Below, in pieces: positions 33,535-62,172 of a stretch of DNA of 64,000 nt (position 1 is the stretch's first letter; each line of letters begins with the position of its first letter). The notes under the pieces are model-generated. The model ran no database searches. It was not told the origin of the DNA and saw only the letters and a program-made list of their open reading frames with translations. A program made the position numbers and the translations under genes. The DNA comes from Acidimicrobiales bacterium (GTDB taxonomy: Bacteria; Actinomycetota; Acidimicrobiia; Acidimicrobiales; Bin134), in assembly GCA_965115985.1 (NCBI GenBank), contig OZ220474.1, positions 2,396,909-2,460,908 on the forward strand, read 5' to 3'.

Positions 33535-33541
33535 GCCCACC

Positions 33542-33547
33542 AGTCTA
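33542..33547 (-). promoter_or_regulatory. -10-like TAGACT box placed for a leaderless transcript
   Basis: TGTCACAGGTGTCGGTAGACT-N7-ATG. The same arrangement is found upstream of the second DUF222-HNH gene at 49028-49033. Confidence 0.45.
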
Positions 33548-34175
33548 CCGACACCTGTGACAACATCTACTGTGAGCCCTGGTCACCACGAAAAATTGTT
33601 TATAGATAATTGAAAATAGCTGATACTTGCTAATACCGACTCGGAACTTGAAACCCAACCCGTCGCGACCTCCGTTGAAGTTCATCTTTCCTCACCACCA
33701 CCGAGGTCGAGGATGCACATTGAGTTAAGTGGCCCCTGCCCCCCCTGTCTCACCAAACCGCTCACAGGGAGCCGCAGCGGTTCCCGCTCCGATCACCACC
33801 GACAGCCCGAAACCCTGGAGAAGCCGTCCCTTGCCCCCGCAGGTCACCGCCCCGACCACCACCGCCCTACCAAACCCCCCGCTGACTCACTTCTTGCTTC
33901 CTCGCCAAGCCTGGAACTGCATGTGAGTGTGGGCGATCACGGTGCTCCAGCTAAACTCCGCTTCTTGCGCTCCCCCGACAAACCATGTACCTTCCCCGAT
34001 ATCAGCGACAAAACCCGCGAGACTCGTTCCCTCTGCGGCCAGACCTAGATATGACCGGGCTTCGTTTCTGGTTCTCTCTAAATCTGGCTGCGGGTTGTCG
34101 CTGATACGAAAAGTCCGGCTTATTTGTAGGGAACCACCCTTGATGACTACCACCGACCCCTGCTAAAATGTTCTG

Positions 34176-34481
34176 ATGGTCACCCCACCACCAACGGACG
34201 ATACCACCGAGGCCGACAATAACCCGGCCCCGAACACACCACCACCAATCCAACCACCTACAACCACCAAACAAAAGAGACCTTTCTACCATTTTTGGCG
34301 TATAAACTTGCGCAAAGTTTATAGTACTGTTTTTACTGTTATTATGTTTTTAATACCAGTGACAGCAATTAGAACATTGCATTGGCTTGGCCTTTATTAT
34401 TGGATTAGTTTTATAGTTGGTGTAATTGTTGCAGCATTGGTAGCAATTACGCTTACTAGAATAGAAAATATAAAGAGATAA
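34176..34481 (+). CDS. Small membrane protein, paralog 1 (Pro/Thr-rich N-terminus, 2 TM)
   Basis: PPIQPPTTTKQKRPFYHFW is followed by two hydrophobic segments and a basic tail. Confidence 0.55.
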   Translation: MVTPPPTDDTTEADNNPAPNTPPPIQPPTTTKQKRPFYHFWRINLRKVYSTVFTVIMFLIPVTAIRTLHWLGLYYWISFIVGVIVAALVAITLTRIENIKR

Positions 34482-34571
34482 AATCTTAGAATAAAACTTC
34501 CATGACCATGCAGGGGTCGGTGGTGGTCATCAAGGGTGGTTCCATTAGAGATAATCGAGGGGAATACGAAA

Positions 34572-34724
34572 ATGTTTCGCAAGTGTTTGGTGATTACGGT
34601 TTGCCTTACCGTGTTTGCTACGGTGACTCCGGCGGTGCAGGCTCACGACCTGGAGACTGTGACTAGGACGATCCCGGCGGTCACGCGACATGAACCCATT
34701 TACAAGGATGTCGAAGAAACCTAA
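34572..34724 (+). CDS. Small secreted peptide (50 aa)
   Basis: MFRKCLVITVCLTVFATVTPAVQA signal-like N-terminus. A GAGGGG site lies 8 nt upstream. Confidence 0.4.
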   Translation: MFRKCLVITVCLTVFATVTPAVQAHDLETVTRTIPAVTRHEPIYKDVEET

Positions 34725-34770
34725 AAATTGAGGGTTCCCTATATGGAGACTTACAATTTGAGGGTTGGCC

Positions 34771-34779
34771 GTGGTATAA
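34771..34779 (+). promoter_or_regulatory. Extended -10 element TGgTATAAT
   Basis: tggtataat lies about 26 nt upstream of ATG 34805, with GAGAGGAA between them. Confidence 0.35.
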
Positions 34780-34804
34780 TCCGGCTACTTGAGAGGAACT
34801 GCCT

Positions 34805-35113
34805 ATGACAACCACCAACACTCCAACAATGAACAGCACCCCGGACATACCCCCACCACCAACCTAACCACCCACAACTACCGGACAAAATAAGATATGG
34901 TACAAACCCTCCTGGAGTTCCATTAAATATTATTTTTGGAATTTTATTGCGCTGATTATATCAAATACAGTGTCTAATTTTTTGCCCGAACCTTTTTATA
35001 GTCATCGCTATCTTCTTCTTATAATAGTAGGTTCAGGTACCTTAATTATATTTGGTGCAATTGTACCTGGCGCATTGGTTTGGGCATGGTTGCGGTCAAG
35101 ATACGGTCGATGA
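34805..35113 (+). pseudogene. Small membrane protein, paralog 2, with in-frame TAA at 34865-34867
   Basis: MTTTNTPTMNSTPDIPPPPT*PPTTTGQNKIWYKP...LPEPFYSH... is homologous to the neighbours but interrupted. No in-frame ATG follows the stop. Confidence 0.5.
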
Positions 35114-35412
35114 GGAGCCTAAAAGTAATAATCGAGTAACTATCAAGGGGACTGTTAGTTATGAGAAAGCCTTTTGAATTGGTAGTCCCCTAATCGTGGG
35201 TGAGCAAATGGCGGGGTTCCTATAGCAAGCACGACAATAAACACTACAACTACTAAGCTCTTACGAAGCCTCTTTGTGTTCCTCTCGATTATCTTGAGGG
35301 TAACCACCCTTGACGACCACCACTGACCCCTGCTACATGGCCCCGAAAGCTTTAACGTAACATTTTATCTCATAACTAACAACCCCCTCGATAGTTACTC
35401 GATTACTATTAC

Positions 35413-35862
35413 TTAGACTTTCCGTTGTCTATTCCTAAGCAACATAAATACACTAATGAGTATTATAGCAATACCAAACACTCCAGCAAGTAGAGTAAAA
35501 TCACTAGCAAAAGGTTCAGGTAAATAGCGGGATATCAAAAACGCCAAAAAAATCACTAACCAATGAACTAACGTCCCAATAGGTATTATAATCCAAGAAG
35601 TGCTGCGCTTTCTCTTTAGTTTGGTAGTTGTGGGTGGTGGGGGAATGGTTGGGGCCATGTCGGCATCGGTAGCAACCGGTGGTGCGGCGGTGTTGGCCGA
35701 GGTGTGGTAGGCACCGGTGGCAGTGTCGGCTGGGGTGGCTGGTGATCCGATGTTGGCCATCATAACTCGGTGGCGGGGCTGGGGGTGGCTGTTGAGCCTG
35801 GTTGGCGGCGGGGCCGGGGGTGGTGCAGATTCCCGGCCCTCGTCGGTGGGGGTCTGTTCCAT
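35413..35862 (-). CDS. Small membrane protein, paralog 3 (start uncertain)
   Basis: PPPPTTTKLKRKRSTSW..., LPEPF between two TM segments, and a basic tail RNRQRKV. Confidence 0.55.
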   Translation of the reverse strand: MEQTPTDEGRESAPPPAPPPTRLNSHPQPRHRVMMANIGSPATPADTATGAYHTSANTAAPPVATDADMAPTIPPPPTTTKLKRKRSTSWIIIPIGTLVHWLVIFLAFLISRYLPEPFASDFTLLAGVFGIAIILISVFMLLRNRQRKV

Positions 35863-35891
35863 TTCGAGGGGGTGGCGGGTAGGGTGGGGGT

Positions 35892-45042: not shown

Positions 45043-45083
45043 TATCCCACCCGTCCGCCAGGATCATCAGCATCGGGATCGTC

Positions 45084-45246
45084 CCCGCTCGGATCGTCGG
45101 AACCGGGACCGCCGGCACCCGGATCGTCCCTATTCGGATCGCCGGCGCTCGGATCGTCCCGTCCCTATTCGGACCGCCAGAACCGGGATCGCCAGCGCTC
45201 GGATCGTCCCGTCCCTATTCGGACCGCCAGAACCGGGATCGCCACC
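45084..45246. repeat. 48-bp tandem repeat x~3.4 in a divergent promoter region
   Basis: gcgctcggatcgtcccgtccctattcggaccgccagaaccgggatcgcca occurs at 45146 and 45194, with degenerate copies upstream. Confidence 0.85.
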
Positions 45247-45262
45247 ATTAGAATTGCTCGTC

Positions 45263-47090: not shown

Positions 47091-47091
47091 G

Positions 47092-47198
47092 GCGGATTGC
47101 GGACCGCCGGCGGGTACCTGCACACACGGCCCGTACAGGCCAGTTTCTCCCAAGGTTGCTCCCCCCAGAATCAGGTGTCCACCGAACCGGGGCAACTC
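47092..47198 (-). mobile_element. Remnant of an IS3-family end (terminal repeat plus first orfA codons)
   Basis: cccc.a.aatcaggtgtccacc.aaccggggcaactccaa matches 5196-5238. The similarity continues over the orfA start region (cacacg.ccc.tac). Confidence 0.7.
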
Positions 47199-47202
47199 CA
47201 AC

Positions 47203-47231
47203 TTGACACGGGGGGGGGGGGGGGGTAGTTA
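47203..47231 (+). promoter_or_regulatory. TTGACA-c-G16-TAGTTA element (candidate promoter with homopolymer spacer)
   Basis: A -35-like TTGACA (47203-08), a 17-nt spacer made of c plus 16 G (47210-25), then TAGTTA, 11 nt before ATG 47243. An identical 28-nt core lies inverted at 61200-61227. Confidence 0.4.
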
Positions 47232-47242
47232 TACAGACCGCT

Positions 47243-47509
47243 ATGACAAGTCCCTACGACAGTCCGGTTGCCAAGCCCCCCAATGGATTGGCGACGGCAG
47301 GATTCATACTTTCCTTCTTTACGCTTCTCCCGTTCTTCGGGTTCTTCGTCTTCATCCTTAGCGTGATCTTTTGTAGTATCGGGTTGCGTCGGGCCAACGC
47401 TGAGGGCCGTCAGGGCAAAGGTCTGGCGATAGCCGGCCTCGTAATCAACATAGCCACGCTGCTTCTCACAATCATTTTCGTCATAGCGATACTAGGGGCA
47501 GCCTCGTAA
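47243..47509 (+). CDS. Small membrane protein, DUF4190-like (2 TM)
   Basis: NGLATAGFILSFF... and GLAIAGLVINIATLLLTIIFVI. Lower G+C than the flanks. Confidence 0.7.
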   Translation: MTSPYDSPVAKPPNGLATAGFILSFFTLLPFFGFFVFILSVIFCSIGLRRANAEGRQGKGLAIAGLVINIATLLLTIIFVIAILGAAS

Positions 47510-47605
47510 TAGCGATTTTTGCTGATTGCGCGGCTATTACACAGCTTGGGTGGCAGGAGGTTGTGCGGCCCGGGTTGATGGGATAGGTGTCGTCAAGCTG
47601 GCTGG

Positions 47606-47714
47606 GGAACATCCGGCTTATTGCTCATGGTTCGGTTGGCTCTCTCGCATGATGGTTCCCGCCCGGCTCAGGCTGCGCAGGGAACATCCGGCTTATTGCT
47701 CATGGTTCGGTTGG
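47606..47714. repeat. 74-bp-period duplication (35-nt core x2) of the 3' end of the second DUF222-HNH gene
   Basis: ggaacatccggcttattgctcatggttcggttggc occurs at 47606 and 47680. Confidence 0.9.
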
Positions 47715-49020
47715 CCCGGTTGGTGTAACGCTTTTTGGCCGGGGGTTTGAGTTTGTGCTGCCCTTCGGGTTCGGTGGTCACGGTGTAGCCGTGTTTGTGG
47801 ACCTTGGTGTGGCAGGTGGGGCATAGCAGTACCAGGTTGGTGATGTCGGTGGGTCCGCCGTGTTCCCACCACAAGATGTGGTGGGCCTCACAAGCAGTGG
47901 CCCGCAGCCCGCAGCCGATGCAGTGCTTGTCCCGGGCGTAAAGAGCCAGCCTCTGTGCTTGTGTGGCTGATCGTTGTTTTCTGCCCAGGTACAACGGCAC
48001 CCCGTCGCCACCAAAGATGGCCGGTATCACCCCGGCATCGCAAGCGATCCTCCGTAGATCGTCGATGCCGATAGGGGTTCCGTCGATCAGCCCGGCGTTC
48101 TTCAGTCGCCCGGTCAACTCGTCGTAGTCAACCGTGACCAGCAATGTCGTGGCCTGCACGGCGACATCCTCGGTGGCAGCGTCCCCGCCGGTGGCAGTAT
48201 TCCCGCTGGAAGCAGCGTCCCCGCCGGTGGCAGCAGCACCCCCGTCGGAAACAGCATTGCCGCCGCCGGTGCTGGCGGGGGTTTGGGTGATGAGCGCGAC
48301 CAGAGCGTCGGCGTTGCGTTGTTCGTGGGTGCGGTCGTTGCCTGCTTTGAAGTCGTCTCGGAACATGCGGTCGTGGAGGTCGTCCAGCGCGGTTCTCACT
48401 CGCTCTCCGGAGAGGCGGTCGAGTTCGGCGTGGATGATGATCATGTCGTCGTCGCCGTCGAACACGCCGGCTCTCCGGCGTTTGCGTTGTTGTTCCAATC
48501 GGCTGGTTCCGTCGTCGCCGCATCGTTGGTTTTCGTGGCGGTCCACGGTTTTTTTGAACTGGTCGAAGTCCTGGGTTATGGCCAGGGCGATGAGCTCGAA
48601 CTCCTGGTCGTCGCCCAGGGGCACTCGTTGGTGGGATTCGCCCATCAGTCGGGCGTGGTCCATGGGTATCCATCCGTCCTGCACTGCGTCCAGTGTGGTG
48701 GGCAGTGCTTTGAGCACTTCCGCGGTCTTGGCCTGTTTGCGGGCCCGATAACGACCCAGGCCGAACTGGCGGCACACATCGGCCACCGCGTCATCGCCCT
48801 CCAGGTCACCCAGGCGACCCAGCAAGGCGGTCAGGTAGCCGTCGAGCCCGCGGCGGGCCGCGTCGGCTTGGAAGATCAGCTTGAGCAGATCCTCGGTGCC
48901 CAGCTTGGTGGGGGCGACCTGGTTCGCCTTCGAGCAAACACACGAGCAAGCACACCCGGCCTCCCGGCCTCCCGGTCCGGCCTGCTCGGCGTCGTCCCTG
49001 GTCACAGCGTCGATTTCCAT
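47668..49020 (-). CDS. DUF222 + HNH endonuclease protein, second paralog
   Basis: Same architecture as 32188..33534, with CIGCG...HHILWWEHGGPTDITNLVLLCPTCHTKVH. Confidence 0.85.
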   Translation of the reverse strand: MEIDAVTRDDAEQAGPGGREAGCACSCVCSKANQVAPTKLGTEDLLKLIFQADAARRGLDGYLTALLGRLGDLEGDDAVADVCRQFGLGRYRARKQAKTAEVLKALPTTLDAVQDGWIPMDHARLMGESHQRVPLGDDQEFELIALAITQDFDQFKKTVDRHENQRCGDDGTSRLEQQRKRRRAGVFDGDDDMIIIHAELDRLSGERVRTALDDLHDRMFRDDFKAGNDRTHEQRNADALVALITQTPASTGGGNAVSDGGAAATGGDAASSGNTATGGDAATEDVAVQATTLLVTVDYDELTGRLKNAGLIDGTPIGIDDLRRIACDAGVIPAIFGGDGVPLYLGRKQRSATQAQRLALYARDKHCIGCGLRATACEAHHILWWEHGGPTDITNLVLLCPTCHTKVHKHGYTVTTEPEGQHKLKPPAKKRYTNRANRTMSNKPDVPCAA

Positions 49021-49027
49021 ACCCCAC

Positions 49028-49033
49028 AGTCTA
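49028..49033 (-). promoter_or_regulatory. -10-like TAGACT box, leaderless arrangement
   Basis: TGTCACAGGTGTCGATAGACT-N7-ATG(49020). Confidence 0.45.
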
Positions 49034-49149
49034 TCGACACCTGTGACAGTATCCCCCCTGAATCATCTTCAGCCATAAGAATCAACGTAAAAAATATAGA
49101 AATATCCAGAATTTAATCGGTTTGAATGACAAAAACCTCCTACCTCTCC

Positions 49150-49186
49150 AGCAAGGCCCCGGAACCAGGAGCCCACCAAACCGGGG
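49150..49186 (-). mobile_element. Degenerate IS3-end-like fragment
   Basis: caggagcccaccaaaccggggcaacccc compared with caggtgtccaccaaaccggggcaactcc at 5212-5238. Confidence 0.4.
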
Positions 49187-49216
49187 CAACCCCATGGCAA
49201 CCCAAATATCGGCTTC

Positions 49217-49356
49217 GCGATGTTCGGGTCGTGGGGCCACGGCCAGCGTCCGGGTGGCGCACTGCCGGCCTGCACCGCGATGTTCGGGTCGTGGGGCCAC
49301 GGCCAGCGTCCGGGTGGCGCACTGCCGGCCTGCACCGCGATGTTCGGGTCGGGCAG
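49217..49356. repeat. 60-bp perfect tandem repeat x2.3 upstream of the NfuA-like gene
   Basis: cgcgatgttcgggtcgtggggccacggccagcgtccgggtggcgcactgccggcctgcac occurs at 49217 and 49277, with a partial copy at 49337. Confidence 0.95.
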
Positions 49357-49400
49357 GTCGGGGTCGAGTTCGGGCGGGTGGCTCGGGTAGGCTGGTCGGC

Positions 49401-50024
49401 GTGAGCGAGACGGTTCAAGCCCAACTGTTCGAGGTGACCGAGGCGGCCATTGCCAAGGTACTCGAGATCCGATCCAACGAGGATGATTCCGAAGCCCTCG
49501 GCCTGCGTATCGAGGTGACCGGGGTCAGCGGTGCCGACTACACCTACGATCTGGCGTTCGAGGAGATTGCCCAGTGCGTGGAGGGCCATCGCAGCATCAT
49601 CGCCGGGGGCCTTACGGTGATGATCCCCGAGGAGTCGGTCGAGGCGCTGACCGGAGCCACACTGGATCTGCCCAACAACCCCATGCAGGGTGGGCTGGTC
49701 ATCCGCAACCCCAACAAGCCCGACCTCTTGGCCGGTGCCGATCTGGAGCTCGCCGGCACGGTCCCCGAAAAGCTCCAGCAGCTTCTCGATCAGCACATCA
49801 ATCCCTCGCTGGCCTCCCACGGTGGTTTCGCCACCCTGCTGGGGGTGGAGGGGCCCACCGCCTACATCACCATGGGCGGCGGATGCCAGGGCTGTGCCAT
49901 GAGCGCGGCCACGCTGCGGGAGGGCATAACCGTGATGATCACCGAGGCGATCCCCGAGATCACCGATGTGGTGGACGCCACCGACCACGAGGCCGGCGAC
50001 AACCCCTACTTCGCCCGCACCTGA
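49401..50024 (+). CDS. Fe-S cluster carrier, IscA/HesB-like N-domain + NifU C-terminal domain (NfuA-like)
   Basis: GTG 49401. The protein has FEVTEAAIAKVLEIR... and HGGFATLLGVEG...GGGCQGCAMS. Confidence 0.8.
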   Translation: MSETVQAQLFEVTEAAIAKVLEIRSNEDDSEALGLRIEVTGVSGADYTYDLAFEEIAQCVEGHRSIIAGGLTVMIPEESVEALTGATLDLPNNPMQGGLVIRNPNKPDLLAGADLELAGTVPEKLQQLLDQHINPSLASHGGFATLLGVEGPTAYITMGGGCQGCAMSAATLREGITVMITEAIPEITDVVDATDHEAGDNPYFART

Positions 50025-50046
50025 ACCTCCCCCGACCCACCTGCTC

Positions 50047-50275
50047 CCCCGCCCGTCCGGGACGTGACCCGGATATGAGTCGTTCGGTCCGAGGCCGCCC
50101 GTCCGGGACATGACCCGGATGTGAACTGCCCGGTTCGGGCCCCGCCCGTCCGGGACATGACCCGGATGTGAACTGCCCGCTTTGGCCCCGCCCGTCCGGG
50201 ACGTGACCCGGATGTGAGTTGCCCGCTTCGGGCCCGTCCGTCCGGGACGTGACCCGGATGTGAGTTGTCGGCGCG
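50047..50275. repeat. 46/47-bp tandem repeat x5
   Basis: cgtccgggac(a/g)tgacccggat(g/a)tga... occurs at 50054, 50100, 50147, 50193 and 50239. Confidence 0.9.
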
Positions 50276-50294
50276 GCCTGGCAGAATGGCGGGC

Positions 50295-51992
50295 ATGTTC
50301 GATCTTTTGATTCGTGGGGGCACGGTTGTGGACGGGACGGGATCCGTTCCCAGGGTTGCCGATGTGGCGGTGGCCGATGGGGTGGTGGCCGCGATCCAAG
50401 CCGGTCTCGTCGCCGAGGCCACCGAGGTGATCGATGCCACCGGACGCTACGTGACCCCGGGGTTCGTGGACGTGCATACCCACTACGACGGCCAGGCCAC
50501 CTGGGATCCGATCATGGCCCCCTCGGCCTGGCACGGGGTGACCACGGTGGTGATGGGCAACTGCGGGGTGGGTTTCGCCCCCGCCGATCCCGATGCCCAC
50601 GACTGGCTGATCGAGCTGATGGAGGGGGTGGAGGACATCCCCGGGGCGGCCCTCCACGAGGGGATCACCTGGCGATGGGAGACCTTCCCCGAGTACATGG
50701 ACGAGCTCGAACGGCTCGACCGCACCATCGACGTGGCCGCCCAGGTGCCCCACGGGGCGGTGCGGGCCTACGTCATGGGCCAGCGGGGGGCCACCACCGA
50801 GGCGGCCACCGCGCCCGAGCTGGCCGAGATGGCCCGCATCGTGGGCGAGGGAACCGGTGCCGGTGCGGTGGCGTTCTCCACCAACCGATTGCCGCTGCAC
50901 ACCTCGCTGTCGGGGGTGCCGGTGCCGGGTACCTTCGCCGACCATCAGGAGCTGGCCGCCCTCGTGGGGGCGCTTTCGGGCCGGTCGCTGGTGGAGGTGG
51001 TGCCGGCCGGCTCCATGGGCGAGGATCCCGACGCCCCCATCCGGGAGGTGGAGCTGTACCGGCGGTTGAGCCTCGAGACCGGTCGAGCCATCACCTTCAC
51101 CATGGTGCAGATCCACGCCAACCCCGGCCAGTGGCGACGGCAGATGGACATCGTGGAGCGAGCCAACGCCGAGGGGGCCAGGCTGGTGCCCCAGGTGCAG
51201 GGCCGCCCCGGCGGGCTGCTCGCCGGATGGGATCAGTTCAACCCGTTCGCCAAGCGCCCGTCCTACCAGGCACTGGGCCACCTGCCGCTGGAGGAACGAT
51301 TGACCGAGCTGCGCCGCCCGAAGTTGCGTGCGGCGATCCTGGCCGAGGATATTCCCGGCGATCCGGCCATGGGCATCCTGCGCCATTCCCTGCACGCCAC
51401 GTTCCCGTTCGACGACGGCCCGGTGTTCGAGCCCGACCCCGCCGATTCGGTGGCGGTTATGGCCGACCGCACCGGCACCGATGTGCTCGAGCTTTTGTAC
51501 GACCTGATGTGCGACCGGGGGATGCTCCAGGTGTTCTTCACCGGCTACCACCACGGCGACCTCGAGGACCTGCGGGAGATGATGGTTCATCCCATGACCG
51601 TGGTCGGGTTGGCCGACGGCGGGGCCCACTGCCGGGTGATCTCCGACGCCAGCCTGCCCACCTACGTGCTCCAGCACTGGGTGCGCGACCGCCGGCGAGG
51701 ACCGAAGCTGTCCATGGCCGAGGCGGTGAGGCTGTTGACCTCCGAACCGGCCGAGCTCTACGGCTTCGACGACCGGGGCGTGCTGGCCACCGGCAAGCGG
51801 GCCGACCTCAACGTCGTCGACCTCGAGGCCATGCGCCTCCACCTGCCCGAAGTGGTGGCCGACCTTCCCACCGGGGCCCGCCGCCTGCTCCAGAGCGCCG
51901 ATGGTTACGACGCCACCGTCTGCGCCGGCGAGGTCACCTTCCGCCACGGCCACCCCACCGGTGCTCGTCCCGGAACCCTCATCCGGGGCTAG
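50295..51992 (+). CDS. N-acyl-D-amino-acid deacylase (D-aminoacylase) family amidohydrolase
   Basis: [16 protein letters not shown]...[13 protein letters not shown]. Confidence 0.85.
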
Positions 51993-52042
51993 CCCCATCC
52001 CCCGAGCAGTCGCGCCCGGCATCGACCCTCTTGTTTTGACCG

Positions 52043-52133
52043 CCCCTTGTCGCCATGAAGTGCCCATGATGACCATTCGTCGGAGTCGGCGACCGATGCC
52101 GAGCCCGGCATTGATCCCCTTGTCGCCATGAAG
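52043..52133. repeat. 73-bp-period duplication of the helicase start region
   Basis: ccccttgtcgccatgaag occurs at 52043 and 52116. The decoy ATG 52055 opens only MKCP*. Confidence 0.85.
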
Positions 52134-54941
52134 GGCCCCGAACCCCTGGGCCGCAGTGCTCTTGTCGCGGTGGGGCAGTCGGCACCGCAAGCCTGGCAGG
52201 GTTGCCCACGCCTGAGGGTGCGAACCGACCGCTTCGATCCGGCGGTGGGGCGGGAGCTGAGACGAGCGTGGGTGGAACGCACCCCGGTGGTGATCGAACT
52301 GCAAGGCAACCTGCCGGAGGCCGAGCCGGTCATTCATACCCATTGGTGGGAGCTCAATGCCGGTTTGACCATGCCCGCCGAGGTGTTCGGTCATCTCCTC
52401 ACCGCCAACACCGTGGATTGGCGTGATCCCCACCACCCCCGATTCGAGCCCCGGGAGCGAGCGCTGGTGCTGGGAGCCCGCCCGACCGCGGAGGGCGAGC
52501 CCGGTGATGTGGTGACCGCCACCGGACCGATCTGGTGCGACGGCGGGCCGTTCGCGGTGTTCGACCCCGAAGCGCTGGGGGCCGGATCGGTTCCCGCCGT
52601 TCCCGCCGTCAACCTGGCGGCCGGGAGCCTGGTCGCCCCGACCCCGACCCGACCCCGGGCCGACCTGGCCGACGACCAGATGGCCGCGGTGGCCCATCTG
52701 GGCGGCGGTGCCTGCATCGTGGCCCCGGCCGGTTCGGGCAAGACCCGGGTGCTCACCGAACGAGCCCGCTACCTGGTGCGCGACCTCGGCGTCGATCCCC
52801 GAGCCGTCTGCCTGGTGGCGTTCAACGTGCGGGCTCGGGCCGAGATGGCCGAACGCACCGCCGATCTCCCCGGTCTGGAGGTGCGCACGCTCAACAGCCT
52901 GGCCCTGGCGGTAACCAACGGCACCGGCCCGTTCGCCCGCCCCCGCGACCACGGCCGGGTGGAGGTGATCGACGAGCGCAGGGTGCGGGACCTGCTCGAC
53001 GGGATGGTGCCCCGCAAGCGGCGGGCCATGACCGACCAGCTCGCTCCCTGGATCGAGGCTCTGGGCGCGTCCCGGCTGGGTCTGCGGGATCCCGCCGAGG
53101 TGGAGCGCGACTTCCATCCCGATGTGCCCGACTTCTCGGTGATCGCCCCCCGATACGTCGATCTGCTCGACGAACGGGGCCTGGTGGACTTCGACCAGCA
53201 GATCGTTCGGGCCATCGACGTCCTGCTCGGCGACCCCGCGGCTCGGGCCGCGGCCCGGCGGGTGTGCGGCATCCTCTTGGTGGACGAGTTCCAGGATCTC
53301 ACCCCCGCACACCTGCTTTTGGTGCGGCTGCTGGCCGGACCCCGAGCCGATGTGTTCGGGGTGGGCGACGACGACCAGACCATCTACGGCTACTCCGGGG
53401 CGTCCCCGCAGTGGCTGATCGACTACGACAAGTTCTTCCCCGGATCCCGCCGCCACGAACTGCACGTCAACTACCGCTGCCCTCCCGAGGTGGTGGATGC
53501 CGCCTCCAACCTCCTGTCCCACAACCGCCGACGCATCGACAAGCAGATCACCGCGGCTGGGGGCCAAGCCGACCCCGACAATCCCGGCCAGGACCGCCCC
53601 GCCCGTTCCGGCCCGGACCGCCCCACCCCCGACCGCCCCGCCCCCGCCCGCCCCGGCCCGGTTGCACCCATCACCGTCCGGACGGCAGCCTACGGAGCAC
53701 CGGTACTGCGTCGGACCGTCGAATCCCTGCTGAACGCCGGTGTCCATCCCCACCACATCGCCGTTTTGGCTCGGGTGAACAGCACCCTGTTGGTTCCCCA
53801 GATCGTTCTTGGCGAGATGGAGGTGCCGTCCACCCGACCGGTGGGTCACTGGTTCCTGGAGCGCACCGGGGTGGCCGCCGCCCTGGCCTGGCTGGACATC
53901 GCCACCGCCCCGGAGCGGGGCCTGCCCGCCCAGGCCCTGGCCGATGCCGCCCGCCGTCCCCCCCGAGGCATCTCCCCTCGGGTCATCGAATGGATCGCCG
54001 AACAACAAAGCGTCTCGGAGATCAAGGCCCTGGCCCGCCGCATCAAGGACGAACGCTCCTCCCGGAAGGTGAGCGAGTTGGCCGACGATGTCAAGATGCT
54101 GCGGTCGAGGGCTCGCAAGGCCGGTGGTCGGGTCACCACCCGGGCCCTGCTGGAGACGGTGCGCGACGAGATGGGCCTGGGCGGAAGCCTGGACACTCGC
54201 CTGGACGCCTCCCGCCGCTCGGTGGATCGATCGGCCCACGGCGACGATCTACGAGCGCTCATCTCGGTGGCTCATCTGCACCCCGACCCGACCGATTTCA
54301 GGGAGTGGCTGGCCGACAGGCTGCCGGACGCAGGTGGGGGCGACCGGGGTGTCCGGCTGGCCACCGTGCATCGGGTGAAGGGGCTCGAGTGGCCCCACGT
54401 GATTGTCTACGAGGCGTCCAAGGGGCTGATGCCCCATCGCTTGTCGGGAGACCTGGAGGAGGAACGGCGGGTGTTCCACGTGGCCCTCACCCGCTGCTCG
54501 GAATCGGTCACCCTCATCTGCGGCGACCCACCCACCACCTTTCACCAGGAACTACTGACCCGCCACCAACCCCCTCCCGACCCCGACCCGACCACCACCG
54601 CCGACCTGCTCACGCCCCCCATCGTCACCGCCCCCACCCCACTACCCGACTCGCCCCCCAGCAAAACACCCACCAACAAGCCACCCTCACGCTCCAATCC
54701 CCATCCCCCCTCCGACCCCGTCGGCAGCGCCGCATTCGAGGCCCTGAAAGCCTGGAGACGCGAACGCAGCCGAGCCGACGGCGTTCCCGCCTACATCGTG
54801 TTCACCAACGCCACCCTGATGGAACTAGCCACCCACCGCCCCACCACCGACACCGAACTCCTATCCATCCCCGGCATCGGCCCCACCAAACTCACCACCT
54901 ACGGCGAAGACATCAAAAAAGTCCTCACCCAGTTCCACTAA
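52128..54941 (+). CDS. UvrD/Rep-family helicase with ~180-aa N-terminal extension and C-terminal HRDC domain (UvrD2-like)
   Basis: APAGSGKT Walker A, DEFQD, VHRVKGLEW, and a C-terminal AFEALKAWRRERS...IPGIGPTKL HRDC domain after a Pro/Thr-rich linker. Confidence 0.9.
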   Translation: MKGPEPLGRSALVAVGQSAPQAWQGCPRLRVRTDRFDPAVGRELRRAWVERTPVVIELQGNLPEAEPVIHTHWWELNAGLTMPAEVFGHLLTANTVDWRDPHHPRFEPRERALVLGARPTAEGEPGDVVTATGPIWCDGGPFAVFDPEALGAGSVPAVPAVNLAAGSLVAPTPTRPRADLADDQMAAVAHLGGGACIVAPAGSGKTRVLTERARYLVRDLGVDPRAVCLVAFNVRARAEMAERTADLPGLEVRTLNSLALAVTNGTGPFARPRDHGRVEVIDERRVRDLLDGMVPRKRRAMTDQLAPWIEALGASRLGLRDPAEVERDFHPDVPDFSVIAPRYVDLLDERGLVDFDQQIVRAIDVLLGDPAARAAARRVCGILLVDEFQDLTPAHLLLVRLLAGPRADVFGVGDDDQTIYGYSGASPQWLIDYDKFFPGSRRHELHVNYRCPPEVVDAASNLLSHNRRRIDKQITAAGGQADPDNPGQDRPARSGPDRPTPDRPAPARPGPVAPITVRTAAYGAPVLRRTVESLLNAGVHPHHIAVLARVNSTLLVPQIVLGEMEVPSTRPVGHWFLERTGVAAALAWLDIATAPERGLPAQALADAARRPPRGISPRVIEWIAEQQSVSEIKALARRIKDERSSRKVSELADDVKMLRSRARKAGGRVTTRALLETVRDEMGLGGSLDTRLDASRRSVDRSAHGDDLRALISVAHLHPDPTDFREWLADRLPDAGGGDRGVRLATVHRVKGLEWPHVIVYEASKGLMPHRLSGDLEEERRVFHVALTRCSESVTLICGDPPTTFHQELLTRHQPPPDPDPTTTADLLTPPIVTAPTPLPDSPPSKTPTNKPPSRSNPHPPSDPVGSAAFEALKAWRRERSRADGVPAYIVFTNATLMELATHRPTTDTELLSIPGIGPTKLTTYGEDIKKVLTQFH

Positions 54942-54975
54942 CCCTCGGCAAAAATAACTCCCACCGCTCATCGGA
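54654..54975. repeat. Segmental duplication copy 1 (HRDC-coding 3' end plus ~30 nt downstream)
   Basis: About 93% identical by eye to 61868-62172. Confidence 0.85.
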
Positions 54976-55315
54976 TATCGAATGTTGGCAATACCAACAG
55001 GGGAGAGACAGGTGAGGAGTTTATAAGAAGGTGTCTGAGGAGAGCAGGCTTTTCAGATAATGTTCAACATCTGGAGGAAGAACGAAGCCAACGAAGGACT
55101 AGCTGGCCACTTAGTGATGATGGCACAGGATCAGGATATTACCTATAAACTAACTAAACAATTAGCAGATATGAAACCTATAGATGAAATGGCTGAAATC
55201 CTACTTGAAAAAATGGTTGATGAATAAGTACTCCTGATAATTAACTTTGGCTACGCAAATAGATTGTGTTATAGCTCTCAATCCACCCGCTACTATTCAA
55301 AGTAGTAGGCTGATT

Positions 55316-57469
55316 TCAATTACTGGAATTCCACCGTCCATCCAAGCGCATTGAAGTCAAGCCCCAACATTCTGCTTTCCCAGTTTCCCGGAGGCCACAA
55401 GCATGGTAACCGTGGACTGATACCGATGTGAACCGACCACTGGGTACGTTCGTTATCAAATCTAGGCTCCTCCCGTACACATCTAGGTCACTCCCCCAGC
55501 ACACAATGGTGCCGTTTTCTCTTAGTCCACACGAGAACATAGCCTCTTTGGATGAGGCGATCGCGCTGAATCGACCATCCGGGGGATCTAGCACCCCGGT
55601 AGGGTTTCCATCTGGGTAGTAAACTTTATCATCCCCCCAACAAACCAGGGTACTATCCTCGCGTATACCACATGCATAGAAGAGCCCTGTGGACACTGCA
55701 GTAAACCGTCCTTCTGGTGCGTTCAGTTCCTTGAAAAAGTATTCATAAGTCCTATCATCATCCCGGATAAATGTTGTTGAAATCGCATCTTTTTTCCAGC
55801 ACTCGACTGTCCCATCTTCTCGCAGGCCACAGGTATGAAGGTCGCTCGTAGAAACTTCCATAAACTCGCCGCCAGAGTAATTATATAAAGGCCATAGTGT
55901 ATAGCCATTGGAATTCCAGCATACAATAGTATTGTCGATAGAGACACCACAATACAACCCCAATAAATTACTACTACTACCACTTATAGAGGTGAACTGG
56001 CCCTCAGGCTCATAGAAAGAAGTCTTATTCAAAGCCATACTATAACCATAGTCCCAGCAGCGGATATTTCCATCTATTAGAAGACCGCAACTATCACGAC
56101 GAGTATGAGCAATATCAATAAACTTGCCTTTAGGCATATTTAGTGTTTCCCCCATTCCCCATCCCCAGCACTGGATCGTACCATCGTTACGAATACCGCA
56201 TGTGGAGTTGCCATATCCTGCATGGACACTTTTGAACTGGGAGTCAGGTGCACCAGTCTTCTCAATACTGCACCGGTCACCCTCGGGCCAACCAAGTAGT
56301 TTGAGGTGCCCACAGCCGATGTAAGAAGTTATATTACCACCATAGTTGAAAGTATACGGGCTGCACCCTATACCGTACATGATCGAACAATCTTGTGGGT
56401 GGTCAAGATAAAACACCGAATGTCCAATCTCATGTGCAACTAAAGGAAGATTCCAATATCTATGGCAATCAGCCTTATCCATGCTCAAACGCGAGTTACC
56501 AGACTCACCTCCGTCAGGACAATTAGGTGCAAATACATGACGGTACCAAGGTTCTTCATACCATGGATGGGCACTAATATACCATTCATAAAATGATTCA
56601 GGAGTATAAACCACTGCATACTTTCCATAACTCGCGTAGCCTGCCGCACCACCCCCTGGGGCTGCATCAACTAATATTAACAAATTGTTGTAGTCTCCTA
56701 AATCTTGGATTGCAGTAAGACATGGCTTACCTTCTAACTTACTAAGGCCGCCTATAGTCAAACCTTTCCATTCTATATTTGGTGAAACAATTCCTCCATA
56801 AATGAATTCAAGGCTTACTAGGTTAGATGATTGCTTAGCGTAGAAAGTAGACACTACATCATTCAATCTAGCTATATCATGATTGATATATATATCTGTG
56901 TATCGCTGACTATCAGGCACACAGTAGAACACTGTAATATCTACCTTACCTGTGAAAGGCACTGGTGAGAGTGGGAGGGTCAATGGTGAGCTGTATAGCC
57001 ACCGGCCGGTGGGAGCATCAAGGGGGAAATAGCGGACCTGGGGCAAGAGGTGACCACCCCATGTGTTATCAACTCGACCCAACTGAAGGGCGAACTCAGT
57101 CCTGCCACTGATCAGCCTGCGAGCTGCAATACGGACGGTTCCAGTTTCAATAGTAAGCGGTGAACTGGATAGCCACCAGTCGATGGAGGTGGAAGTAGGG
57201 AAGTAACGAGTGCTGGGCAAGAGGCGGTCACCCCAAGTGTTATCGAGCTGACGTAACTGAGCGGCAAACTCAATTCTACCGTCACTCAATTTGCGGGCCG
57301 CGATACGTACCTCCAACTCATCGTCATCACCAATCAGTTCCTGTGCAGTGGCTTCGGAAGAAACAACCACCAAGCCCACCGCTATCGACACCACCACCAA
57401 ACCGACACCCACCAGACTCCTCCACCATTGTCGAATTGGAGAGGAAGGGGAGAGGAGGGGAGGGTTCAT
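55316..57469 (-). CDS. Secreted multidomain protein: 2 N-terminal ~55-aa modules + HExxH metalloprotease-like domain + degenerate RCC1-like repeats
   Basis: Signal/TM region WWRSLVGVGLVVVSIAVGLVVVSS, VAHEIGHSVFYLDHP, and seven C(G/W)-type blades (CGIRNDGTIQCWG ... ACGLRETGKAECWG). The gene is A+T-rich. Confidence 0.75.
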   Translation of the reverse strand: MNPPLLSPSSPIRQWWRSLVGVGLVVVSIAVGLVVVSSEATAQELIGDDDELEVRIAARKLSDGRIEFAAQLRQLDNTWGDRLLPSTRYFPTSTSIDWWLSSSPLTIETGTVRIAARRLISGRTEFALQLGRVDNTWGGHLLPQVRYFPLDAPTGRWLYSSPLTLPLSPVPFTGKVDITVFYCVPDSQRYTDIYINHDIARLNDVVSTFYAKQSSNLVSLEFIYGGIVSPNIEWKGLTIGGLSKLEGKPCLTAIQDLGDYNNLLILVDAAPGGGAAGYASYGKYAVVYTPESFYEWYISAHPWYEEPWYRHVFAPNCPDGGESGNSRLSMDKADCHRYWNLPLVAHEIGHSVFYLDHPQDCSIMYGIGCSPYTFNYGGNITSYIGCGHLKLLGWPEGDRCSIEKTGAPDSQFKSVHAGYGNSTCGIRNDGTIQCWGWGMGETLNMPKGKFIDIAHTRRDSCGLLIDGNIRCWDYGYSMALNKTSFYEPEGQFTSISGSSSNLLGLYCGVSIDNTIVCWNSNGYTLWPLYNYSGGEFMEVSTSDLHTCGLREDGTVECWKKDAISTTFIRDDDRTYEYFFKELNAPEGRFTAVSTGLFYACGIREDSTLVCWGDDKVYYPDGNPTGVLDPPDGRFSAIASSKEAMFSCGLRENGTIVCWGSDLDVYGRSLDLITNVPSGRFTSVSVHGYHACGLRETGKAECWGLTSMRLDGRWNSSN

Positions 57470-57519
57470 CTTTAAAGATTATACTTAGGACATCGGGATT
57501 GCAACTGTAACACGGCGTT

Positions 57520-58400
57520 TGTGTGCAGATAAGTGTTTTCGGATCGAGGCGATAGTCAAGTTGGAGTGCTTGATGTCCGAGATCGTTCGGCGGTCGGGTC
57601 GGAACCGCTCCGCGGTGTGACGGGAGTTAGCCCGCAAAGGTCGACGACCGTGCCGAACCCGATCACTGGGAGAGCAATCTATTGGCAAGCTCTATTGGTG
57701 GTCGCGACAGAGTTCATTGTAGATGGTTTGGGCTGTTCGCCAGTTGCGGGGGTTTGCGGGGCATGGTGTCGGGCTGGTCCTCGATGATGGCGAGGCGTAC
57801 CGGGTTGATATCCAGGTCGGTCGATTTGAGCACCCAGCGTCTTATCTGTTCGTTGGTGGCTCGCTGCCAGGGCGAGCGCGCCTCGCAGAAATAGACCTCG
57901 ATACCCAGGGCGTTTTCGATGTCGGCCCATTGGGCCATCTCGGTGCCCTGGTCCCAGGTCAAAGTCTTGACCATGGCCGACGGTTGGCGACCCAGCACCG
58001 CGGTGGCGGCTCGTGCGGTGCTGTTGGTGTCGTAGCCGTCGGGCAACGCCACCAACAGGGTATGGCGGCTGGTTCTTTCCACCAGGGAGATAATGGCCGT
58101 CCGGTTGTTCCGGCCGATGATCAGATCGCCCTCCCAGTGGCCCGCCTCGCAGCGGTCGTCGACCTCGACGGGTCGCTCGGTCAAGCACCGGTAGTCGCCC
58201 AGCACGGAGCGTTCGTTGCGGGCGACCTCCCGCCACACCGCCGAGCGGCTCCGACCCAACCGCCGCGTAACCTCGGCCACAGAGAGCCCCAACCCGACCA
58301 TCGCCTCGATCCGAAACCGCTCACCCGCACCCAAACGCCGTGCCATAATAGAAACCTCCACCGGTTGATTGCCGACACTTCTAACCGGCCATTATGGCCG
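57520..58400. mobile_element. IS30-family debris (two fragments in opposite orientation)
   Basis: ORF 57714..58361 (-) has an HTH (LSVAEVTRRLGRSRSAVWREVARN) joined directly to a partial DDE core (HWEGDLI, TWDQGTEM), too short for an intact IS30 transposase. 57590-57660 (+) reads SEIVRRSGRNRSAV*RELARKG, a second broken HTH fragment. Confidence 0.7.
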
Positions 58401-58692
58401 ACCCGTCGCAACCACCAGTGGAGTTCAACGACTGTTGCTTTGAAGCTCACGCTGGCAAGTTGCCACCCACCACAGGATAAAGGTCGGCTGGGTCTCTACA
58501 GGTGTCAACCACAACGACTAAACTCCTTTGCCCTGACCAGCACAGCCACCCTAGGTTTGCTCCAACACATCAGTACCCTTCACCTTTATCGCGGCTACAG
58601 GAGCGAACCCTAGCACCTAATCTGCCTGGACCACAGCATCAATGATGTCGTCCGAACTCCCAACGACCGTCCAGCAAAAACGCCTCCTACGC

Positions 58693-60588
58693 TCAGCCAA
58701 GTCGTAGGTTGAGGTTGCCGTTGCCCCAGCAGGTGATGGTGCCGTCGATGCGCAGCTTGCACGAATGCGACCCGCCGGCGGATACCGCGGCGAATCGGAT
58801 GTCGGGTGCCTCCGCCCGCCCGTGGTCGTTGTCGCCCCAGCAGGTGATCGTGCCATCGGTGCGCAGCCCGCACGAATGCGATCCGCCGGCGGATACTGCG
58901 GTGAATTGCCCGCCGGGTGCTACTACCTGCCCGTGGTCGTTGTCGCCCCAGCAGGTGATCGTGCCGTTGGTGCGCAAACCACAAGAATGCGATCCGCCGG
59001 CGGATACCGCGGTGAATTGCCCGCCGGGTGCCTCCGCCCGCCTGGAGTCGTTGTCGCCCCAGCAGGTGATCGTGCCGTTGGTGCGCAAACCACAAGAATG
59101 CGATCCGCCGGCGGATACCGCGGTGAATTGCCCGCCGGGTGCCTCCGCCCGCCCGGAGCCGTTGTAGCCCCAGCAGGTGATCGTGCCGTTGGTGCGCAAA
59201 CCACAAGAGTGCGATCCGCCGGCGGATACCGCGGTGAACTGTCCGTCCGGTGCCTCCGCCTGCCCGTAGCCGTTGTTGCCCCAGCAGGTGATCGTGCCAT
59301 CGGTGCGCAAACCGCACGAATGCTCGCCGCCGGCGGATACCGCGGTGAATTGCCCGCCGGGTGCCTCCGCCCGCCCGTTGTTGCGCCAGCAGGTGATCGT
59401 GCCATCGGTGCGCAAACCGCACGAATGCGATCCGCCGGCGGATACCGCGGCGAACTGTCCATCCGGTGCCTCCGCCCGCCCGTAGCCGTTGTCGCCCCAG
59501 CAGGTGATCGTGCCGTTGATGCGCGCACCGCACGAATGCGATCCGCCGGCGGATACCGCGGCGAATCGGATGTCGGGTGCCTCCGCCCGTCCGTGGTCGT
59601 TGTCGCCCCAGCAGGTGATCGTGCCATCGGTGCGCAGCCCGCACGAATGCGATCCGCCGGCGGATACTGCGGTGAATTGCCCGCCGGGTGCTACTACCTG
59701 CCCGTGGTCGTTGTCGCCCCAGCAGGTGATCGTGCCGTTGGTGCGCAAACCACAAGAATGCGATCCGCCGGCGGATACCGCGGTGAATTGCCCGCCGGGT
59801 GCCTCCGCCCGCCTGGAGTCGTTGTAGCCCCAGCAGGTGATCGTGCCGTTGGTGCGCAAACCACAAGAATGCGATCCGCCGGCGGATACCGCGGCGAACT
59901 GCCCGTCCGGTGCCTCCGCCCGCCCGTAGCCGTTGTCGCCCCAGCAGGTGATCGTGCCATCGGTGCGCAAACCACAAGAATGCGGTCCGCCGGCGGATAC
60001 CGCGGCGAACTGCCCGTCCGGTGCCTCCGCCCGCCCGTAGCCGTTGTCGCCCCAGCAGGTGATCGTGCCATCGGTGCGCAAACCGCACGAATGCTCGCCG
60101 CCGGCGGATACCGCGGCGAACTGCCCGTCCGGTGCCTCCGCCTGCCCGTAGCCGTTGTTGCCCCAGCAGGTGATCGTGCCATCGGTGCGCAAACCGCACG
60201 AATGCTCGCCGCCGGCGGATACCGCGGTGAACTGTTCTGCCGTGACTCGTTCTGGGTTGGGGGTAGGTGTGGGTTGGAGGGTGAGGGGGGAGCTGTTGAG
60301 CCATTGGCCGGTGGAGGCGGTGGTGGGGAAGTAGCGCTTGTCGGGTAGGAGGCGGTCGCTCCATGTGTTGTCGGGCTGGCGGGTTTGGAGGGCGAACTCG
60401 ATCCTGCCGCTGTTCAATTTGCGGGCGGTGATTCGTACTTCCCGCGTACCATCATCAGCAGTCTGGGTTTGGGTGGCTACAGTGGGAGCAACGGCTGTGA
60501 CCCCTACTGAGATTGCCAGTATCACCGCGCTGGCCCACACCAACGATTTTACTTTTTTCTTGCCCATTTTTACTTTTCCCCTGTCCAT
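58693..60588 (-). CDS. Secreted RCC1-like repeat protein (one N-terminal module + 14 x 37-aa blades)
   Basis: Signal/TM region KSLVWASAVILAISVGVTAVA. The unit GQFTAVSAGGSHSCGLRTDGTITCWGDNGYGRAEAPD is 111 bp. Alternative start at 60567. Confidence 0.85.
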   Translation of the reverse strand: MDRGKVKMGKKKVKSLVWASAVILAISVGVTAVAPTVATQTQTADDGTREVRITARKLNSGRIEFALQTRQPDNTWSDRLLPDKRYFPTTASTGQWLNSSPLTLQPTPTPNPERVTAEQFTAVSAGGEHSCGLRTDGTITCWGNNGYGQAEAPDGQFAAVSAGGEHSCGLRTDGTITCWGDNGYGRAEAPDGQFAAVSAGGPHSCGLRTDGTITCWGDNGYGRAEAPDGQFAAVSAGGSHSCGLRTNGTITCWGYNDSRRAEAPGGQFTAVSAGGSHSCGLRTNGTITCWGDNDHGQVVAPGGQFTAVSAGGSHSCGLRTDGTITCWGDNDHGRAEAPDIRFAAVSAGGSHSCGARINGTITCWGDNGYGRAEAPDGQFAAVSAGGSHSCGLRTDGTITCWRNNGRAEAPGGQFTAVSAGGEHSCGLRTDGTITCWGNNGYGQAEAPDGQFTAVSAGGSHSCGLRTNGTITCWGYNGSGRAEAPGGQFTAVSAGGSHSCGLRTNGTITCWGDNDSRRAEAPGGQFTAVSAGGSHSCGLRTNGTITCWGDNDHGQVVAPGGQFTAVSAGGSHSCGLRTDGTITCWGDNDHGRAEAPDIRFAAVSAGGSHSCKLRIDGTITCWGNGNLNLRLG

Positions 60589-60590
60589 TT

Positions 60591-61118
60591 CTAGCCCTTG
60601 TAGCTTTCACCGAAACTTTTGCCTGGGAAGCCTCCGGATTCGGTATCGTCCTTGTTGCCGTCGGAAAACCCGTCCTCGTATCCATCCTCGAATGCGTTCT
60701 TCATATCCTCCAACGTGTTAATGCTGATCCCGTTTAGGCACGCTATGTAACCCAGCCTGTAACCGTAATCATTGTTTCTGGCTGGATCTTCATCCTTGCA
60801 ATCTTTGTGGCCATCTTCGATGTCATCCATACCGCCCAAATCATACATAAAGCTGTCTGCACTGTCGTGATCGAAGTTGTTTGAGTACCAGCCATCGTCG
60901 TAGCCTTCGTTGTAGCCATATCCGTAGCCGATCTCTTTGGCCAAACCCCCGGCTCCTCCCCCTCCGCAAGCAGTGGCCAGAGCCACTACAAAAAGAACGA
61001 TGATCGCCAGCGGCTTGTATGCCGTGGTGGCATGGTTGCCCGCGACCCCGGTGTCCGGCTCCGAGGCTGGAGCGTCCCATTCTCTCGTGTCCACCGATTC
61101 GCGTCCCTGCTCTGACAT
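60591..61118 (-). CDS. Acidic Gly/Tyr/Asp-rich lipoprotein
   Basis: TM and lipobox IIVLFVVALATAC. Its stop is 2 nt from the start of the RCC1 gene. Confidence 0.65.
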   Translation of the reverse strand: MSEQGRESVDTREWDAPASEPDTGVAGNHATTAYKPLAIIVLFVVALATACGGGGAGGLAKEIGYGYGYNEGYDDGWYSNNFDHDSADSFMYDLGGMDDIEDGHKDCKDEDPARNNDYGYRLGYIACLNGISINTLEDMKNAFEDGYEDGFSDGNKDDTESGGFPGKSFGESYKG

Positions 61119-61197
61119 GATCTTGTACCTGTCCTTCCCCCCTGGAAAGTCAGCAAACTTCCCAAGTCCCGGTTGAATGCAGTGCTATCAGATTGCA

Positions 61198-61226
61198 GTT
61201 CTACCCCCCCCCCCCCCCCGTGTCAA
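61198..61226 (-). promoter_or_regulatory. Inverted twin of the TTGACA-c-G16-TAG element
   Basis: Plus strand ctaC16gtgtcaag (C run 61204-61219). On the minus strand this reads TTGACA-c-G16-TAGAAC, about 80 nt upstream of ATG 61118. Confidence 0.35.
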
Positions 61227-61345
61227 GCCTTAGGGCAGAGAAATCCAAAAAATCCAGGAACGATCCGGACTGCCTGGCCAGCGGGGGTGAACCCGCCGGC
61301 GGGCTACTGCCCCGGGCACCCTCGTCGGCACCCCGGTGCCGGAGG

Positions 61346-61852: not shown

Positions 61853-61867
61853 CTGCCCCCACCACCC

Positions 61868-62172
61868 GCGCCCCCCAAAAAGCCACCCTCACGCTCCAAC
61901 CCTCGTTCCCCCACCGATCCCGTCGGCAGCGCCGCGTTCGAGGCCCTGAAAGCCTGGAGGCGCGAACGCAGCCGAGCCGACGGCGTTCCCGCCTACATCG
62001 TGTTCACCAACGCCACCCTGATGGAGCTGGCCACCCACCGTCCCACCACCGACACCGAACTCCTGTCCATTCCCGGCATCGGCCCCACCAAACTCACCAC
62101 CTACGGCGAAGACATCAAAAAAATCCTCACCCAGTTCCACTAACCCCCGGCAAAAATGCCTTCCACGCTTAC
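61868..62172. repeat. Segmental duplication copy 2: orphan HRDC-coding fragment (track ORF 61844..62143)
   Basis: It encodes ...DPVGSAAFEALKAWRRERSRADGVPAYIVFTNATLMELATHRPTTDTELLSIPGIGPTKLTTYGEDIKKILTQFH, differing at about 3 residues from the helicase C-terminus. No helicase core precedes it. Confidence 0.85.

Follow-up and report, generated by a model that had tools for sequence, protein, structure and literature searches.

Poly-G tracts lie between the -35 and -10 elements of porA in Neisseria meningitidis and of tp0126 in Treponema pallidum, where expression peaks at a spacing of 17 nt and slipped-strand mispairing gives rise to population heterogeneity (PMC7864442). The locus described here resembles both promoters in that a G homopolymer fills a sigma-70-type spacer (here a candidate one) and that genes for envelope proteins (here predicted) lie downstream. 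It differs from them in the length of the tract (16 nt here, about 8-12 there), in its non-canonical -10 boxes and the probable absence of a leader from one of the two targets, and in the presence of two copies, identical over 27 nt, at the edges of accessory islands. The host also differs, being an uncultured Acidimicrobiia animal symbiont, known here from sequence alone, rather than a pathogen. To our knowledge, nearly all characterised phase-variable promoters are from pathogens, and a full-text search combining 'sponge symbiont' with 'phase variation' returned no paper on the combination among its top matches. Promoter-associated homopolymers likewise modulate the transcription of surface proteins at Bordetella fim, Neisseria opc and the poly-C/G tracts of T. 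pallidum tprE/G/J/L; there, the tract overlaps the -35, the -10 or an activator site, whereas here it would simply fill the spacer. A likeness to the outward -35 elements and hybrid promoters carried by insertion sequences is seen in the IS3-family end that lies 2 nt upstream of the left -35, although the TTGACA here falls outside the IS terminus and the right copy has no adjoining IS. Finally, propagated or 'mobile' promoters place identical promoter cores upstream of unrelated genes; the 27-nt core is similarly identical before non-homologous genes, with two copies seen here.

The two copies of the core and their components occupy the following positions in the window, that is, the whole 64-kb stretch of DNA that was analysed:

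47202-47228, plus strand: left core, cTTGACAc-G16-TAG, 27 nt
47203-47208, plus strand: left -35 hexamer TTGACA, a perfect consensus, followed by c at 47209
47210-47225, plus strand: left G16 homopolymer in the candidate promoter spacer
61201-61227, minus strand: right copy of the 27-nt core
61221-61226, minus strand: right -35 hexamer TTGACA
61204-61219, minus strand: right G16 (C16 on the plus strand)

The two cores are perfect inverted repeats, 13,972 nt apart. A preliminary description had placed TTGACA-c-G16-TAG upstream of a small membrane protein, which the sequence bears out (the ATG at 47243 is 11 nt after TAGTTA), and had reported an inverted second copy with the same tract length; both the copy and its length stand, whereas its position is corrected from 61200-61227 to 61201-61227 and the common core measures 27 nt (47202-47228) rather than 28. 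Its remark that no other comparable run occurs in the window also holds, since runs longer than 8 nt are limited to the two 16-mers. Specifically, G/C runs of 4, 5, 6, 7 and 8 nt number 603, 179, 61, 9 and 1 in the 64-kb window, and the next in length are the two 16-mers; a G10 pattern matches 14 times, compared with a mean of 2.6 in shuffled sequences. TTGACA itself occurs six times in the 64 kb, counting both strands, and two of these hexamers are the core sites. The combination of the tract with a perfect TTGACA is exceptional for this DNA, and the G16 found at both sites falls within the length of about 8 nt or more that is characteristic of the homopolymer in spacer-type slipped-strand promoters.

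Local alignment on both sides of the cores gave no similarity beyond the 27 nt above that of shuffled controls. The perfect identity of these 27 nt extends to the flanking c and TAG, which are non-essential, and suggests that one promoter was copied (propagated) instead of arising twice independently; insertion of the IS may have erased further upstream similarity between the copies. Both window tracts and the analogous tract of a relative (L170, below) measure exactly G16, a uniformity that is odd for hypermutable tracts and could reflect recent copying or an effect of consensus calling. Scanning the window against Rfam and for tRNA genes returned nothing. A sigma-F/B-like (GGGTAT) or ECF-type core was considered and rejected, as no matching -35 was seen by eye and the GGGTA motif is absent from the L170 site. 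A 13-nt match to the left-core junction (ACTCCAACTTGAC; 57559, minus strand) falls within a fragment of an IS30 transposase gene in antisense orientation and was regarded as a coincidence.

Three hexamers are candidates for the -10 element:

47226-47231, plus strand: left -10 candidate TAGTTA, spacer of 17 nt, 11 nt before the ATG, no T at position 6
47230-47235, plus strand: left -10 candidate TATACA, spacer of 21 nt, 7 nt before the ATG
61198-61203, minus strand: right -10 candidate TAGAAC, spacer of 17 nt, C at the last position

The -10 candidates are poor at both copies, and a promoter consensus scan called neither core site. A T at position 6 of the -10 element is near-invariant; its absence from TAGTTA and TAGAAC had been pointed out in the preliminary description, and TATACA likewise lacks it. 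The tract lies between a -35 hexamer that is perfect and is kept in homologues, and -10 candidates that are all without the T at position 6. TAGAAC agrees at five of six positions with the TAGRRT of the actinomycete consensus TTGACR-N-TAGRRT. On the left, TAGTTA is indeed present at a spacing of 17 nt, as previously proposed, but the geometry of homologous promoters favours TATACA at a spacing of 21 nt.

This geometry comes from homologues of the gene downstream of the left core, which has the following neighbourhood:

47243-47509, plus strand: gene for an 88-aa DUF4190 membrane protein with two helices, without a Shine-Dalgarno sequence
47091-47200, plus strand: solo IS3-family right-end remnant, ending 1 nt before the core
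3959-5238: intact IS3-family element with TG...CA ends, a 3-bp AGT target duplication and an HTH_21/rve ORF

Candidatus Poriferisocius, a genus of Acidimicrobiia from metagenomes of marine invertebrates, supplies the nearest relatives of both the 88-aa product (69-75% identity) and the neighbouring ABC-2 permease (85-91% identity). Exact-protein look-ups with the 88-aa product and with the 175-aa product of the right copy matched no record, and the searches of public data turned up no closely related strain. Three DUF4190 homologues are preceded by TTGAC(A/G)-17 nt-TATnnn-7/8 nt-ATG without a G tract, as exemplified by TTGACA-17 nt-TATAAG-7 nt-ATG in L043 and TTGACG-17 nt-TATGGA-8 nt-ATG in L169, and the corresponding arrangement in the window is TTGACA-21 nt-TATACA-7 nt-ATG. 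The left copy therefore looks like a candidate leaderless promoter, the spacer of which may have been expanded by four bases. A nearby gene for a 717-aa RCC1 protein is preceded by TATAAT-8 nt-ATG, consistent with a leaderless geometry being in use in this part of the window. In L169, a Logan contig, a G11 tract (120-130) was also observed ~190 nt upstream of the DUF4190 homologue; on the other strand it lies 1 nt before a possible divergent ATG, and it has no TTGACA context.

The left copy adjoins an IS3 remnant, as had been noted: the solo right end stops at 47200, 1 nt before the core. An outward promoter at the IS end was rejected as the origin of the -35, because the IS ends in ...CTCCA (47200) and the TTGACA begins at 47203, outside the terminus. 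The intact IS3-family copy is followed by DNA unrelated to the core, with no TTGACA past its end, so that the TTGACA is not an IS-borne -35.

Downstream of the right copy, a lipoprotein and an RCC1 protein had been predicted, and the corresponding genes are present:

60591-61118, minus strand: gene for a 175-aa orphan protein with a lipobox-like LATAC motif
58693-60588, minus strand: gene for a 631-aa RCC1-repeat protein with an N-terminal signal peptide or anchor
61251-61271, minus strand: terminator-like hairpin with a T-run, at the end of the upstream DXS fragment and immediately ahead of the right core

The lipobox gene has a leader of 79 nt from TAGAAC to the ATG, with a GAAGGA Shine-Dalgarno sequence, and the gene for the 631-aa protein, with its signal peptide, starts 2 nt past the stop codon of the lipobox gene. 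No homologue of the 175-aa protein was found among 5.8 billion proteins, and the right promoter is therefore not comparable across species.

A second instance of the architecture occurs in a relative. In L170, a circular Candidatus Poriferisocius genome at 194x coverage, cCTTGACTTGAC-G16-TGAGAGGTAGCTT occupies the same slot between the ABC-2 and NifU genes, upstream of the gene for a 452-aa fn3/Calx-beta protein. The products encoded downstream of the tracts (the DUF4190 membrane protein, the lipobox protein and the signal-peptide RCC1 protein in the window, the fn3/Calx-beta protein in L170) are thus of the surface type associated with contingency genes. A contig from another sample (L171) matches L170 over 12,579 nt with 0 mismatches but carries G13; at 3x coverage, it shows one further difference from L170, a 1-nt G indel elsewhere. 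The difference between G13 and G16 is suggestive of tract-length variation, albeit in a contig with 3x coverage, and corresponds to spacers of 19 nt at G13 and 22 nt at G16 to a TAGCTT hexamer. In 392 kb of DNA from the lineage, TTGAC followed within 2 nt by at least five G occurs only at the window and L170/L171-type sites.

Comparison with relatives places both cores at the boundaries of inserted DNA. The common backbone has the order ABC ATPase, ABC-2 permease, NifU, amidohydrolase, UvrD/HRDC helicase and convergent DXS, and six Poriferisocius-like backbone types (L172, L173, L174-L181, L182) keep this order with almost no intergenic DNA. Breakpoints were placed by blastn against L170, L172 and L173, which assigned to the backbone the DNA up to 47090, the segment 49380-54941 (NifU, amidohydrolase, UvrD) and the DNA from 61345 onwards, where the backbone resumes after the second island with a 512-nt 3' fragment of DXS (61345-61856). 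Two islands interrupt it:

47091-49379: island A, between the ABC-2 permease and NifU genes, containing the IS3 remnant, the core, the DUF4190 gene, an HNH/DUF222 gene and a second IS3-end remnant (~49160-49195)
54942-61344: island B, between the convergent UvrD/HRDC and DXS genes, containing a low-GC RCC1 gene (717 aa), IS30 remnants, the gene for the 631-aa RCC1 protein, the lipobox gene and the core

Both islands are missing from the six backbone-only types of relative genome. Each core forms the outer, promoter-proximal edge of its own island, into which it is directed. Of the 14 kb that separate the cores, 5.5 kb are collinear backbone, in the same order relative to the outside flanks and in five relatives; the cores therefore do not bound a single mobile element, and the DNA between them has kept its orientation.

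To place the architecture in a wider context, we scanned 185,579 species-representative genomes (GTDB) for CTTGACAC-G11. The scan returned 42 loci from very diverse phyla, representing ~30 unrelated lineages, with tracts of G11-G21. Among the 41 CTTGACAC-G(>=11) sites with enough downstream sequence, 13 are followed by an exact TATAAT and 25 by a -10 match of at least 5/6 within 18 nt. The corresponding counts for G16-TA tracts from metagenomes are 0/112 and 6/112; this sample (H-G16-TA, n=120) consists mostly of contig-end junk and eukaryote-like DNA, contains TTGACA in 0/120 cases, and serves as a control for co-occurrence with a -10 element only. The exact-TATAAT sites have a mean spacer of ~18.9 nt (range 16-22), and long, probably sub-optimal spacer states seem to be common. 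A mean near 19 nt may hint either that G-tract DNA needs more than the canonical 17 nt or that the majority state is OFF. Tract lengths vary among related copies: G13, 13, 14, 14, 16 and 18 among the paralogues of one Saccharibacteria MAG, G12 and G13 among paralogues in a Kiritimatiellia MAG, and G11 and G12 in two Xanthomonadales orthologues. The genes downstream mostly encode surface or secreted proteins, with Listeria-Bacteroides repeats, GLUG, collagen repeats, BspA LRR, PEP-CTERM, M26-N and DUF1565 domains. A metagenome scan for CTTGACAC-G8..-GTAGWWMTRC gave 0 matches. Scans of viral contigs gave 0 matches for the real pattern and for each of two scrambled 8-mers, and are uninformative as an enrichment control.

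The Candidatus Nanosyncoccus MAG JAZUMU01 (Saccharibacteria; L005, L016, L022, L030, L036 and L040) carries six paralogous promoters of the form cccTTGACAC-G13..18-TAGTAGAAT/TAATATAAT with a conserved leader, at least one of them upstream of a surface protein with Listeria-Bacteroides repeats. This set has the appearance of a family of phase-variable genes in a CPR bacterium.

We consider it on balance probable that the two cores of the window are slippage-prone, phase-variable promoters of the porA/TP0126 type. Each copy would constitute the core of a promoter for the housekeeping sigma factor (sigma-70/SigA type), formed by TTGACA and a spacer filled by G16, and would be placed at the upstream edge of an accessory cassette for envelope or secreted proteins: the DUF4190 membrane protein on the left, the lipobox and RCC1-repeat proteins on the right. 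A 16-nt homopolymer is intrinsically slippage-prone, and since a run of this length slips, the distance between -35 and -10 should vary from cell to cell, and the strength of the promoter with it. Slippage of the G-run during replication would accordingly yield phase-variable or 'rheostat' expression. At G16, the right promoter would have the optimal spacing of 17 nt to TAGAAC, while the left would have 17 nt (to TAGTTA) or 21 nt (to TATACA). If TATACA is used, the DUF4190 gene would be largely OFF or weakly expressed in the sequenced majority, and ON, at optimal spacing, near G12-13. Transcription initiation, the choice of -10 box and switching are inferred here from the DNA. The phase-variable reading had already been offered in the preliminary description; the conserved -35, the hairpin, the L170/L171 tract and the recurrence across phyla have since strengthened it, and the poor -10 boxes weaken it.

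The inverted arrangement of the cores invites explanations in terms of mobile DNA. Perfect 27-nt inverted repeats 13,972 nt apart could be the terminal repeats of one 14-kb transposon or the borders of an invertible segment, but the 5.5 kb of backbone in the interval (49380-54941) is collinear with the flanks and with five relatives, there is neither a target duplication nor a recombinase, and flipping the segment would leave each core facing the same gene; we regard this explanation as extremely improbable. Specifically, the outer flanks of the cores differ (CTCCAA versus CCTTAG), and the search for a cognate transposase between the cores found only IS30/IS3 remnants and HNH genes. An invertible promoter switch was rejected as well, because the repeats themselves contain the promoter cores and face inward over 14 kb, with no recombinase found nearby. 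The possibility raised at the outset, that the element is simply the terminus of a mobile element, is thereby rejected in its simplest form, the synteny revealing two separate insertion slots. A subtler version holds that the 27-nt core is a conserved end or integration site of mobile accessory cassettes, with its promoter likeness secondary or incidental. Each copy does sit at the outer edge of an inserted island, with perfect identity over 27 nt and unrelated flanks; the L170 tract is also an island edge, in the same ABC2/NifU slot; and IS3-end remnants bracket island A. However, the distal ends of the islands share no motif above shuffled controls, neither island has a recombinase, an intact transposase or a target duplication, the L170 site has only CTTGAC and the G-run in common with the cores, and no copy occurs in GTDB relatives. 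In addition, the DUF4190 homologues keep TTGACA at the same place with neither island nor tract. Together these observations make a cassette-end origin unlikely.

Slippage-prone, phase-variable promoters must also be set against two readings in which the tract does not switch. G16 could be a fixed spacer, or a G-quadruplex or A-form element that sets promoter strength or blocks read-through, without length switching. A length of 16 at three independent sites would fit such a role, as would the placement of G on the sense strand at all three, with co-directional upstream genes; moreover, G16 could in principle form a three-tetrad quadruplex, the sequence permitting G3-G-G3-G-G3-G-G3. The G13 of L171, the differing tract lengths among paralogues and orthologues of other lineages, and the intrinsic tendency of a 16-nt homopolymer to slip all argue against fixity, and we judge this alternative rather improbable. 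Alternatively, the tract could be a poly-G read artefact or a homopolymer miscall, insofar as many G16 tracts of metagenome contigs are end-of-contig junk and long reads are prone to err on the exact length of a 16-nt run. Both tracts are, however, internal to a 3.37-Mb contig, with unique flanks on both sides and identical borders of 8 and 3 nt, and an analogous tract exists in the 194x circular genome of the relative, which leaves very little room for an artefact.

A more tentative proposal, which we hold to be possible but doubtful, is that TTGAC(A/G)-Gn promoters are widespread and largely unrecognised contingency switches of uncultured bacteria, which in Candidatus Poriferisocius have become a portable module at the leading edge of accessory cassettes. 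Their wider range may include Saccharibacteria, Kiritimatiellia, gut Clostridia, Dehalococcoidia and Xanthomonadales, and the Poriferisocius cassettes, inserted at genomic hot spots, would carry genes for surface proteins of eukaryote-like type (RCC1, fn3/Calx-beta). On this view, stochastic on/off switching of host-interaction proteins would be at work in a beneficial animal symbiont. Confirmation of phase-variable promoters at this locus would bring an uncultured actinobacterial symbiont of sponges and corals within the scope of contingency-locus biology, and would tie the mechanism to eukaryote-like surface proteins that are thought to mediate host recognition. In practical terms, the search pattern TTGACA-c-Gn-TA recovers good candidate switches in many uncultured phyla, and a note of caution applies to annotation, as the tract length in a consensus genome represents the majority state only.

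Several further observations concern the islands and the surrounding DNA. The 3' end of UvrD/HRDC is duplicated (54669-54964 and 61871-62166; 296 nt, 93% identity), with both HRDC copies directly next to the 3' end of an RCC1-repeat gene. Island B is separated from the HRDC duplicate by the 512-nt 3' fragment of DXS, and no complete DXS gene was observed in the window. This arrangement suggests that island B may have grown by duplication of the UvrD/DXS junction. The 717-aa RCC1-repeat gene (55316-57469) has a GC content of 43-48%, compared to 65% for the genome, suggesting a recent foreign origin. RCC1_2-repeat genes at 58600-60340 and 62200-63750 consist of 13-14 near-identical units of 111 nt, with identities of up to 99% between units, and these arrays are a likely substrate for recombinational variation in the length and sequence of a surface protein. 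Inverted repeats of 127 nt (57511-57637 and 58216-58342; 79% complementary) represent an inverted partial copy of the 5' region of an IS30-like transposase gene, from which the scrambled IS30 remnant results.

Towards the distal end of island A, just upstream of NifU, there is a perfect 60-nt tandem duplication (49216-49335), and a tandem repeat of 46-47 nt in 4-5 copies (50047-50278) separates NifU from the amidohydrolase gene. A third break in backbone synteny, at 32062-35870, contains a second HNH/DUF222 gene (32188-33540) with 77% DNA identity to the one beside the DUF4190 gene in L043; several of these genomes have HNH/DUF222 genes alongside their accessory islands. At 45050-45260, periodic repeats of 15 nt produce an N-terminal extension of the ABC ATPase ORF, which encodes 391 aa, compared to 304-326 aa in relatives, where the extension is absent. 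Finally, the intact IS3-family element interrupts an array of a 36-nt head-to-tail tandem repeat, GTCCTACTGGTCGCAGGGCGCGGGGTTTGATGACGA (3880-3958 and 5239-5340+), which is located at the N-terminus of the ORF for a Peripla_BP_6 protein (2581-4593) or upstream of it.
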